This document shows, one piece after another, positions 21,672 through 25,150 of a DNA stretch of 64,000 nucleotides; positions within the stretch are counted from its first letter, which is position 1, and the number at the start of each line of letters is the position of its first letter. Position numbers and translations under genes: made by a program. The stretch is from the NCBI GenBank assembly GCA_963727775.1, contig CAVSHB010000001.1:1056001-1120000 (forward strand), in the 5' to 3' direction. A model generated the notes under the pieces. It was not told the DNA's origin. It ran no database searches and saw nothing but the letters and a program-made list of their open reading frames with translations. Source of the DNA: an uncultured Nitrospiraceae bacterium (GTDB lineage Bacteria; Nitrospirota; Thermodesulfovibrionia; Thermodesulfovibrionales; SM23-35).

Positions 21672-21954
21672 TCAAAATATCCTCCTCCAATAAGGCTGTT
21701 GGCGAAATCGATTACCAATTGTAACTTACGCTATTCTATCAAATCCCGGCGATGAGGACTACAGTCAACTATCATCAGTTTGCCTTTCTTAATGGAATAA
21801 AAAGATTCCTGATGTTTGTGATTGAGAATAATTGCTCCATCACCATTAGCACATTTTTTGACATTGAAGAGGCAAACCCGGGAAACGAGCTTCGTAGAAT
21901 CGCATAGAATCGATTTTCTCGGATCGACCCATATCCCAGATACCCTATTGTGAA

Positions 21955-23169
21955 TCATGAATTCGCCTTTACGCTGAAAGTAGTTTTCTGTGAAAGCATG
22001 GCACATATTACCCTGATGAGTTTATGAGCAGTAGCTATGACGGCCTTTTTGTAGATCAACCCGTCTTTGATTCTTTTCTCAAAGTAGCGATGAAAATATG
22101 CTTCAAACTGGATGACCTTGACGGTCATAAGCCAGATGATCCTTCTGAGATGTCTGTTACCTCGTTTTGATATCTTGCTTAGGCCTACATATTGTCCTGA
22201 TTGGTATACGGAAGGGTCCAGCCCCGCCATGGCAATGACTTGTCTATGACCTGGGAAAAGCCCGGGATCACCTCCAAGCTCAACCAAGAAATTCATGGCG
22301 GACTTCTCACCGATTCCCCGTATAGAGGTGAGAATATCGACATTGTCCTTCATCTGTGCCTGGCATTGCTCTATCAGCATGTCAGTCAGCTCCTGCAGAT
22401 GATCTTCCAATTGTATCAGGATAGATGCCTTTTGCTTGATAATCATCTCTTTGGCGGGACTGGCTGTCCCGATGGAGGTTGCCGCAGCTTTGATAATGGC
22501 GCCAACGGACTCCTCAGTCTGTTTTCCATAAGATCCTGGTATCAGGATCTTTGCTATCTTTGCTCGTTTAGCTTTGCGAATAGACTCCGCAGATGGATAA
22601 TGACACAGCAGGCGGAGCATGGATTTTGTGAAGATGCCCGTAATATGTTCCAGTTCAGGAAATGTAATTGTAAGAACTCTTTTAGTGTCGCTCTTGATTG
22701 CCGTCATCTGGTCGACTAAGCTTTCCCTCTGCCGTGATAGGTCTCTCATGTCCGCATTATCAGGAGTCAGAACATTTTGGGAGAGCGAATCTTTTTTCAT
22801 GCGGAGAAATTGCGCGATGACCATCGCATCTTTTTTGTCTGTCTTGGTCTTCCTCAGTTGAAGTTTCATGAAGTTGCATATGAGCAGGGGATTGATAATG
22901 ATTACGGTAAATCCTTGGGACGTAAGGAACGAGAAGAGGTTGATATGGTAGCATGCCGTAGATTCCATGCCGATAAGGATGGAATCCTTAGGTCCCTCTA
23001 TAGATGAGACTTTCATGAGCAGTTCATCGAACCCGCCCCTGCTCATGGAAGCAGATACGCGGAAAAGTTTTTCTCCATTACTTCCTATACAGCATGCATC
23101 AAACTTTTCCTTCGAGATATCGATACCAAGAAAGATTGTGAACTCTGCCTTTTCATGTGTTTCGGACAT
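21955..23169 (-). CDS. IS110 DEDD recombinase/transposase
   Basis: GIDISK, MEST, KTDKKDA, IRGIG, YQSG, SKRGN; GGAGG RBS before ATG 23169. Confidence 0.95.
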   Translation of the reverse strand: MSETHEKAEFTIFLGIDISKEKFDACCIGSNGEKLFRVSASMSRGGFDELLMKVSSIEGPKDSILIGMESTACYHINLFSFLTSQGFTVIIINPLLICNFMKLQLRKTKTDKKDAMVIAQFLRMKKDSLSQNVLTPDNADMRDLSRQRESLVDQMTAIKSDTKRVLTITFPELEHITGIFTKSMLRLLCHYPSAESIRKAKRAKIAKILIPGSYGKQTEESVGAIIKAAATSIGTASPAKEMIIKQKASILIQLEDHLQELTDMLIEQCQAQMKDNVDILTSIRGIGEKSAMNFLVELGGDPGLFPGHRQVIAMAGLDPSVYQSGQYVGLSKISKRGNRHLRRIIWLMTVKVIQFEAYFHRYFEKRIKDGLIYKKAVIATAHKLIRVICAMLSQKTTFSVKANS

Positions 23170-23194
23170 ACGAAAACCTCCTGCGTTCCGGTAA

Positions 23195-23385
23195 AAACAG
23201 GAAATGCCTCCCCACCAATCCTCCATCGTGACTAGGATTCTTTGACCCGATCAACCTATTATGGTTTTGGGAGGCAGGGGACATACTGAAGTAAGGGTTC
23301 TGTGACCCAGGAAGAAAGAAGCCCTCCTGCCTTTCCAGACTGATTATATTATCTGAGTATGAAATACTCATACTGGGTTATAACA
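23195..23385 (-). ncRNA. Putative IS110 bridge RNA
   Basis: Two stem/internal-loop units, each capped by GGGTCA(C/A)AGAA(C/T)CC; 9-nt loop segment identical to the element flank; ends approximate. Confidence 0.7.
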
Positions 23386-23548
23386 TAAACTCATGGTAGG
23401 AGGAAGAAAATGACTCTCCGTATTTCTATTAGAAGGTCTCATTACCGCAGCCTGGAAGGTAGGATTAGAACACCGTATACTGTACACTCACAGTCTTTCC
23501 AATTACGGATCTATCTTCCGCATCTCTCCCCGTCTGCCGGTCCACCGA

Positions 23549-24247
23549 TTAAGAGGACTTCAATTTGCTATTTTTCAGGTGTCCTCTTAACTTTAATCCT
23601 GCTTCAATGTATTTATGCCGAGCTATGAAATCAGGCACCTCTATGAAGTTCTTTGTCGCACCGCTTGCCTCTTTCATCTCTTCGCCGCTCGGAGCAATGA
23701 CCATAGCGGATATCACCTTTGTAGCATCAAGACCTTCAGCGAGCTTTTTTACCAATTTTCTATCCGAAATTCCTAATTCATCCATAACAGCAGCGATTCC
23801 ACCACTTTTGCCCACTACACGATCAACGATTTCCGTTGCTTTTGAACTGACAGTTGTTTCGGCATAACCGGCTAACCGACAGGCTTCCGCTTTGCTCTTC
23901 CCTTCTATTAAGGCTTCTTTTATTTTCTGCTCGCGGATTACCTGCACTGCGTTTGTTTTAGAAGGTTTTACGGGAGGTTTTCTTTTTTTCTTAGCTTCTG
24001 ACTTAGCAGGTAAAGAGCCATCTGTTTTAATCTGCTTGCTTTGTGACCGAAGCAAAATGAAGAAAGCTTTGGAAATATCCTTTTTGCAACTACTGCAGGT
24101 TATTATCGGATTGAAGACTTGCCATAGTCCTTCCTGTTTGTAGGTTATTTGGATTTTGTTATTGCACTTAGGACAGATAAAGGATTGTGTGGCGATAGGT
24201 GTTACTTGCTTCTCTTCAGCAGTCTCGTTTTTCGTGCCTATGCTCAC
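23549..24247 (-). CDS. Zn-ribbon fused to terminase-small-subunit-like domain
   Basis: CPKC/CSSC; EACRLAGYA HTH and KLAEGLDATK...EVPDF..RHKY region resembling phage TerS. Confidence 0.55.
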   Translation of the reverse strand: MSIGTKNETAEEKQVTPIATQSFICPKCNNKIQITYKQEGLWQVFNPIITCSSCKKDISKAFFILLRSQSKQIKTDGSLPAKSEAKKKRKPPVKPSKTNAVQVIREQKIKEALIEGKSKAEACRLAGYAETTVSSKATEIVDRVVGKSGGIAAVMDELGISDRKLVKKLAEGLDATKVISAMVIAPSGEEMKEASGATKNFIEVPDFIARHKYIEAGLKLRGHLKNSKLKSS

Positions 24248-24459
24248 TGGTGAACACTCCTTTTGTCGTCAAATTTTAAGCAATTTAGGTTCATAGCTCT
24301 GCACCTCACAAATATATCATATTCTATTAGATTTTGGTCGATTTTGCTCGATTTCAGCAGTAATTCGAAAACACAATTAGCAGTTATTTTACAAAGTGGT
24401 AACCTTTGTACGAATCGCTGCCTGCGTAGCATTAAGAGGACTTCGTTTTCTTTACTCAC
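24244..24459 (-). CDS. Small hypothetical protein, translationally coupled
   Basis: GTGA 4-nt overlaps with both neighbouring genes. Confidence 0.45.
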   Translation of the reverse strand: MSKENEVLLMLRRQRFVQRLPLCKITANCVFELLLKSSKIDQNLIEYDIFVRCRAMNLNCLKFDDKRSVHQ

Positions 24460-25040
24460 TTCGCTTCCTCCAACAACCTTTTCTGTTCTTTAAGCCTTCT
24501 CACTACTTCTTCCGCTGGCATATCATCAAGGCCAAGTCTTTTACGCCTCGCTTCATAGGTTTCCAGGGGTACATTTATGGTGACCTGCTCCTTAAGCATG
24601 CCGAGTCGTTGCATCTTTATTCGAATGGCTTGCAGTTTATCAAAAAACTTCAGCGTCCTGTGGGTCCCGATCTGGGTTTCGAGGATTCCCATCTCCTTCA
24701 CACAGGCGACCTGCTCGACTGTAAGCTCGTGGATATTCTTCAATTCCCCATTCTCATGCACGAAATCCTTGAGATTAAACCGTATTATCGTGTCAAGGTG
24801 AGCCTCCACTTCATGAGCCTCCATAAGTGCTTTATGAGTCAAGTTCTTGAGGGAATTACGAGAATTAGCAATCGCAGTTTGAATTTGAGGTTTTTTGAGG
24901 TTTTCATACCCAATATGATAAGCCGTATTCTTCGAGTAACCCGCACGAATCGCTGCTTGTGTAGCATTGAAATCTTTCAGGTACTCGGCGACAAAGAGCT
25001 GTTCTTTCGGGGTAAGCTGACCGTTCTTTCTTATTGGCAT
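24456..25040 (-). CDS. terS: Phage terminase small subunit (Terminase_2 type)
   Basis: LTPKEQLFVAEYLKDFNATQAAIRAGYSKNTAYHIGYENLKKPQI; AGGAGG RBS. Confidence 0.92.
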   Translation of the reverse strand: MPIRKNGQLTPKEQLFVAEYLKDFNATQAAIRAGYSKNTAYHIGYENLKKPQIQTAIANSRNSLKNLTHKALMEAHEVEAHLDTIIRFNLKDFVHENGELKNIHELTVEQVACVKEMGILETQIGTHRTLKFFDKLQAIRIKMQRLGMLKEQVTINVPLETYEARRKRLGLDDMPAEEVVRRLKEQKRLLEEAK

Positions 25041-25150
25041 AGTTCCTCCTGACGATCATCCAGGGAGCACAAATACTATCCACCCCCCAAAGGTTTGGTT
25101 TTGCTTTCGTTATGCTACAAGATGTAAAATAGCTTATATCAAGGGGAAAA

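Follow-up and report, generated by a model that had tools for sequence, protein, structure and literature searches.

Does the IS110 element on the minus strand of this 64,000-nucleotide stretch of DNA (the window) use a bridge RNA of unusual donor-loop geometry, as an earlier note proposed, or does the apparent oddity stem from where the element was taken to end? We conclude with high confidence that the window holds an intact, 1.64-kb IS110-group insertion sequence (21763-23402, minus strand), whose left end likely encodes an IS621-type bridge RNA predicted to guide a 404-aa recombinase so that a short genomic target and the ends of the element are joined at the CT core that they share. Sequence and comparison with relatives together establish the boundaries, the intact catalytic residues, a two-loop fold with compensatory pairs, and the letter-by-letter covariation of guides with target and donor. 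The element and its flanks comprise the following features.

21763..23402, minus strand: complete IS110-group element, both CT core copies counted (1640 bp; predicted circle 1638 bp)
23401..23409, minus strand: left target (host DNA, TTTCTTC) and left core CT (23402-23401)
21763..21771, minus strand: true left-donor arm TAGTTGA and right core CT (21764-21763); the final six bases, TTGACT, are the -35 box of the predicted junction promoter
21756..21762, minus strand: right target (host DNA, GTAGTCC)
21955..23169, minus strand: IS110 recombinase, 404 aa, intact (D17, E69, D111, D114, S324; ribosome-binding site 23183-23177)

Boundaries of the element and its recombinase

We retrieved 160 related loci, the best 80 from a set of 87 and the best 80 from a set of 328, and analysed 117 entries of at least 39% identity, the window and a paralog from its own genome (C3) counted in. 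The left ends of orthologs share a CCTAC start after CT and unrelated flanks, which bears out the left junction CT at 23402-23401 that had been read from the letters alone. A right end was called at AG(T/A)TGA-CT, that is, AGTTGA-CT or AGATGA-CT, in 98 of the 117 loci, a count that is partly selected because the junction-calling patterns included the end motif and the TA box; in the remaining 19 loci the 3′ part or the end motif is missing. The called right end lies 6-26 bp past the last codon in 93 of the 98 loci and 186-241 bp past it in five (the window, L002, L081, L089, and L100). In the window, the right-end CT of the family is 21764-21763, 175 bases further out than first read. Contigs from four public runs (X2, X3, X4, and X6; three samples, two studies) align from 21762 on, and the X3 contig continues past 21762 into 107 bases of different flank. 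The dinucleotide core CT is thus repeated at both ends (23402-23401 and 21764-21763), and there are no long terminal inverted repeats.

The earlier note had placed the right end at 21938. The letters on which it relied (AGGGTATCTGGG) are present, but five orthologs (L002, L081, L089, L092, and L100) conserve the DNA on either side of that CT within the element, so the site is internal. We consider it very improbable that the element ends at 21938 with a donor loop that pairs in an unusual geometry. AGGGTAT-CT does resemble the IS621 donor end and directly follows the stop codon, the bases preceding this CT resemble the short right end of L133, and ISPpu9 makes several circles from alternative ends according to the available part of its description (PMC12288879), which makes a minor alternative end conceivable. 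However, the DNA beyond the 21938 CT is 73-80% identical in the five orthologs, the CT itself is not conserved (L092 has TA), of the 98 loci with a called right end not one ends at this position, and independent contigs pass through 21938 and stop at 21762. An end at 21938 also matches the conserved donor-guide positions at only 2/5 and offers neither a -35 box nor a target-loop handshake pair. With the right end at 21763, the UUCAG/CTGGG pairing proposed for the first loop is a product of the misplaced end, and the donor sequence, the right target, and the circle junction derived from the same boundary are wrong; the junction proposed for PCR would be absent.

The 3.43-Mb genome carries one copy of the element, whose nearest paralog there is 48% identical, and current mobility is therefore unproven. 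No empty orthologous site was found among 60 related genomes or in contigs aligned to the locus, and the target is for this reason reconstructed, not seen.

The recombinase matches DEDD_Tnp_IS110 (PF01548) at residues 14-171 and Transposase_20 (PF02371) at residues 278-363, and scores 239.7 bits against NCBIfam NF033542 (cutoff 140). In 83 proteins, E69, D111, and S324 are invariant and D17 and D114 are conserved in at least 90%; these residues also align with IS621. A structure model built from 83 sequences (pLDDT 85.5) finds its best fold matches in IS621 and ISCro4 (E 1e-16), to which sequence identity is 22-24%; a single-sequence model (pLDDT 39) was discarded as unusable. The closest named relative among the matches listed comes from a Nitrospiraceae MAG (91%), which makes Nitrospirota the probable phylum of the host. 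Directly past the donor loop, a hairpin (23178-23203, minus strand) covers the start of the recombinase ribosome-binding site and could limit translation.

Predicted bridge RNA, its guides, and a putative junction promoter

The predicted bridge RNA is ~175 nt long (~23370-23195, its ends being estimates), and its parts are arranged as follows.

23377..23382, minus strand: predicted -10 box TATAAC with TG extension; the -35 box is supplied by the right end only in the circle (18-nt spacer)
23354..23370, minus strand: 5′ stem-loop of the predicted bridge RNA
23273..23331, minus strand: target-binding loop module
23309..23317, minus strand: left target guide, identical at 9/9 positions to left target plus core
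23284..23294, minus strand: right target guide UUACUUCAG and handshake dinucleotide UA (23285-23284); 6/7 Watson-Crick to CT-GTAGT
23208..23273, minus strand: donor-binding loop module
23249..23257, minus strand: left donor guide AGGUUGAUC; positions 3-7 match donor GTTGA, G-T/U-G wobble is possible at 2 and 8, and 1 and 9 are unpaired
23219..23224, minus strand: right donor guide GGAG (pairs with CTCC) and handshake dinucleotide GA

Much of what the earlier note saw in the left end stands: a minus-strand hairpin with two internal loops (23331-23273), a second unit capped by a near-identical inner hairpin, and, in an IS110-group element with a bridge RNA of IS621 type, a target loop that can be read against the element's own insertion site. 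The loop at 23309-23317 is identical to the flank at 23401-23409, and shuffling the 231-nt left end 200,000 times produced this 9-mer at any position with a frequency of 0.00108. The whole left end folds only modestly better than shuffles (z = -1.66), and structural support for the bridge RNA comes from covariation. The covariation check that the earlier note had called for was carried out in an alignment of 47 sequences, in which the fold held: 97.6% of 1081 cells were paired (slid controls: 31-65%), with two-sided changes in 5 of 23 pairs. Rfam returned nothing in the window except a tRNA.

Once the right end is corrected, none of the four guides looks unusual (target TTTCTTC-CT-GTAGT, donor TAGTTGA-CT-CC). 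The left donor guide, previously described as an imperfect match hinting at a different loop geometry, matches at 5/5 of positions 3-7 against 2/5 at the former end, and its imperfection was an artefact. The complementarity of second-loop GGAG (23224-23221) to donor CTCC was read correctly from the start.

Guides and DNA vary together across orthologs. We permuted distinct guide/flank pairs 5000 times after dropping L120 as a mis-called junction. The left target guide matched its flank at 350/441 positions (permuted mean 308; reached by 0/5000 permutations), the right target guide over 7 nt at 219/378 (permuted mean 180; 0/5000), and the left donor guide at 127/175 (permuted mean 120; 0/5000). 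The right donor guide is nearly invariant (73/74 match), and its test is weak because it barely varies (272/5000). Related elements are not independent, so these permutation counts overstate significance, and letter-level guide switches consequently weigh more. Guide GATGA goes with donor GATGA in 8/8 cases, CACC guides go with CAC targets in 3/3, and right guides TGGAG and TATAG are mirrored by CCA and ATA targets; at left donor positions 3-6, guide and donor agree in 24-25 of 25 classes. The one mismatch of the window's right guide falls at the second base after the core, a position matched in 27/49 classes compared with 47/49 and 43/49 at its neighbours. Guides also change without a mirrored target, in the C3 paralog (right guide TGTAG, flank GATAA) and in L103, which also mismatches. 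The former, L181 (G000 C3 234741-235907), is the 48%-identical paralog, and has its own left-end bridge RNA and a CAC-CT target; the disagreement between its right target guide and right flank possibly reflects a half-match insertion or later guide drift.

The family target is nearly constant, approximately T-N-CTTC-CT-G-W-A, from 90% down to ~45% protein identity, with a mismatch tolerated at the second base after the core; the genome holds 88 such sites. Right flanks of the insertions in L001-L160 carry weak information out to +10, and T-rich blocks lie near +12 and +21. Two other readings of the target were rejected. Hairpin targets of the REP or ISPpu10 kind found no counterpart, as there was no inverted symmetry in 60 reconstructed targets at eight offsets (best score reached by 141/2000 permutations), and a ribosome-binding site on the opposite strand occurred at 2/64 targets vs. 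8/192 controls.

The IS110 element sits at the end of a small terminase-small-subunit element that adjoins tRNA-Leu (window 23401-25063). This host element has four paralogs (G000 C1 828957, C1 218516, C3 104336, and C3 200867), two of which are also near tRNA genes, and in all four the homology ends at a TCCT-G word resembling the family target, or just before it, as if at a recombination hot spot. In two of the four paralogous left-flank copies in the same genome, the sequence passes through CTTCCT into G with no insertion.

Joining the two ends places TTGACT 18 nt upstream of TATAAC, and TTGACT is present at the junction in 57 of 70 loci, the -10/TA box having been part of the junction-calling pattern. 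A linear promoter scan of the left end returned no site, as expected because the -35 box is absent from the linear form. The handshake bases UA and GA provide one Watson-Crick pair before strand exchange and three after, and the IS621 handshake shows the same pattern in the available text of PMC13626964.

We propose the following mechanism. By analogy with IS621, as described in the available parts of PMC11208160 and PMC11208158, excision of the element likely yields a circle, in which right-end TTGACT and left-end TATAAC would form a promoter driving both the bridge RNA (~175 nt) and the recombinase. The target loop would pair with TTTCTTC-CT on the bottom strand and CT-GTAGT on the top strand, and the donor loop with GTTGA-CT and CT-CC. 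Composite sites, each combining a RuvC-like DEDD with a Tnp serine, would cleave, recombination would take place at CT into sites like T-N-CTTC-CT-G-W-A, and the handshake bias (one pair before exchange, three after) would favour insertion. Whether excision proceeds by cutting or by copying is disputed in the accessible parts of two reports (10.1101/2025.10.25.684509; 10.64898/2026.08.31.748434).

The long right end and its shared motif

The long right end is an optional insert present in one sub-clade, and contains two features.

21873..21950, minus strand: gapless non-coding motif that begins at the stop codon and is common to unrelated mobile elements (conserved core ~21945-21883); it contains the false end at 21938
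21772..21787, minus strand: diverged duplicate of the recombinase's last codons and stop (21970-21955), closing the right-end insert

Long and short right-end forms are interleaved within a clade of at least 80% identity, and the tree fits one gain with losses or several gains. One might suppose that the element, though all its parts are in place, does not move here or does so only seldom; it would then be a lone copy in decay, and its insert a scar without function left by tandem or half-match expansion. The genome holds one copy only; the insert closes with a duplicate of the gene's last codons, much like the accumulation of non-coding repeats with left-donor-only boundaries in the available text of 10.64898/2026.08.14.744561; and the accessible part of a screen in human cells gives product from only 18 of the 72 orthologs tested. 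We nevertheless judge this reading improbable, since neither the ORF nor any of the five catalytic residues is damaged, long-end copies stand at different flanks in L002, L081, L089, L100, and X3, so that the long form has transposed as a unit, and the insert's first 70 bp are conserved gaplessly across unrelated elements.

The insert's first ~70 bases form a motif that aligns gaplessly in 14 seeds and 43 copies, with letters at fixed spacing over ~65 bp (GGGATA / TATGG / GA.A.ATCGAT / GGGC.TT / GAAG / TTT). A profile search of the element's own genome returned 13 strong matches, and none in the reversed genome. These copies accompany other IS110s, an rve-type element, and three small integrase-carrying elements, and one lies near a tyrosine transposase-like gene. 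Fourteen of 19 own-genome matches (8 of 10 distinct elements) lie within 50 nt of a same-strand stop codon, compared with 4.3% of random positions, a background that includes coding DNA and so overstates the enrichment. The motif also turns up at stop codons in IS21, ISNCY, rve-type, and further IS110 genes. Its model matches 32 of 101 genomes of the order (E ≤ 0.01, own genome counted in) and 3 of 101 genomes of another phylum (E 1e-4), and both of the two loci checked in that phylum also sit after the stop of an rve transposase.

Outside the own genome we examined 34 strong loci (18 of 29 returned plus 16 fetched), around which selected ORFs were scanned (29 of 51 in one set, 23 in another). 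A family-confirmed mobile-element gene lies within ~350 bp of the motif in 12 of the 34, and the motif starts within 30 nt of a stop in eight: IstB (4), rve transposase (2), ISNCY (1), and IS110 (1). At the other 22, some of them at contig ends, none was confirmed nearby among the selected ORFs. Occurrences at or near the stops of transposase, IstB, and putative replication genes include G000 C1 347005, G000 C3 289271, and positions 1147152, 1510445, and 338517 of G000, among others; further motif loci are L185, L187, L191, L192, L198, L220, L223, L225, L231, and L232. At L195:1149-2921 the motif has a short hydrophobic ORF on one side and a 470-aa ORF on the other, neither with a family match; by eye the pair recalls filamentous-phage coat and adhesion genes, which we take as a presumed resemblance.

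Two candidate functions were rejected. The insert does not appear to be a second bridge RNA or other structured RNA, since shuffled sequences fold about as well as the right end (z = -0.76) and the motif gives no consensus fold on either strand (1 of 14 rows mis-anchored), nor a short peptide gene, as codon-position values show no pattern (1.10/0.97/1.00) and several in-frame stops occur in the 43 copies. No match to a strict version of the motif pattern came from viral contigs or from 150 further genomes of the phylum, and BLAST of the insert returned no plasmid match and, in phages, only 24-26-nt chance matches. We found no description of the motif in the literature searched. Non-coding expansion beside IS110 genes has been described (10.64898/2026.08.14.744561, available text), and 181,180 IS110-adjacent sequences are catalogued according to the accessible part of 10.64898/2026.10.21.760802; such catalogues may already contain this family.

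Our best guess is that the motif binds a protein of the host. A conserved TA...T hexamer on its opposite strand, which no -35 box accompanies, would also fit an antisense promoter. We offer tentatively, and as a possibility that is less than even, the broader idea that this is an undescribed, ~65-bp gapless DNA element acquired independently by unrelated elements (IS110, IS21, ISNCY, IS481/IS3-like, and small integrase elements) at the stop of a transposase, helper, or replication gene, where it would serve as one host factor's binding site or as an antisense promoter back into the gene and would control many kinds of mobile DNA in the order. The shared motif is the only part of the locus that might be new biology. 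If the idea is true, chemically unrelated transposases would be followed by one shared cis signal, which would suggest that mobile DNA is controlled at the level of the host.

Comparison with known systems

The element resembles IS1111-group elements in its recombinase family and its long right end. In the available text of PMC11208160, that group carries its bridge/seek RNA in the right end and has 7-17 bp subterminal inverted repeats. In contrast, the guide RNA here is in the left end and the long right end has no bridge-like fold; membership was rejected on the left-end guides and the right-end z-score given above. No long subterminal repeat is evident. ISPpu9, as far as the available part of PMC12288879 describes it, is likewise an IS110 element whose transposase gene is followed by an optional non-coding module. 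Its ssr9, however, is a small RNA that circularises alone, whereas the module here has no consensus RNA fold, lacks a left boundary of donor type, and is found again in other IS families; and ISPpu9 forms no hybrid promoter in that account, unlike the one predicted for this element. ISPpu10 differs in its hairpin-type targets (10.64898/2026.03.19.712850, accessible text), of which the targets here show no symmetry.

ISCro4/IS622 (10.1101/2025.05.14.653916, available part; PDB 9t56) shares the architecture and is the best sequence match among solved structures (E 4.9e-23), but identity to it is 23-24%. IS621 is a close parallel in layout. In the available texts of PMC11208160, PMC11208158, and PMC13626964 it has a left-end bridge RNA with a 5′ stem-loop, a target loop, and a donor loop, a CT core, a 9-nt left target guide, short core-proximal right guides, the one-to-three handshake, a junction promoter (predicted here), DEDD plus serine, and the same fold. 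The two differ in sequence (22-23% identity) and size (404 aa here vs. 326 aa, with extra helices at ~residues 170-250), and in target and donor; the natural right target guide here pairs over at most 7 nt, the left donor guide is strict only at positions 3-7, and targets lack the stem-loop symmetry looked for.

The earlier note had put the element forward as a candidate new programmable recombinase ortholog. It is a new IS110-group member, but an ordinary one, from which the claimed geometric novelty has been removed: bridge RNAs are predicted in 85.7% of ISfinder IS110-group elements (PMC11208160, available text), and 72 orthologs have already been screened (10.1101/2025.05.14.653916, available part). 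One more IS110 bridge recombinase is decoded, from a larger 400-aa branch with no solved structure among the matches, and ~60 natural insertion sites supply mismatch rules. The correction is practical, as the donor and junction primer first proposed would have failed; the corrected donor makes the element ready for the standard reprogramming assay, a useful if routine addition to the systems compared here.
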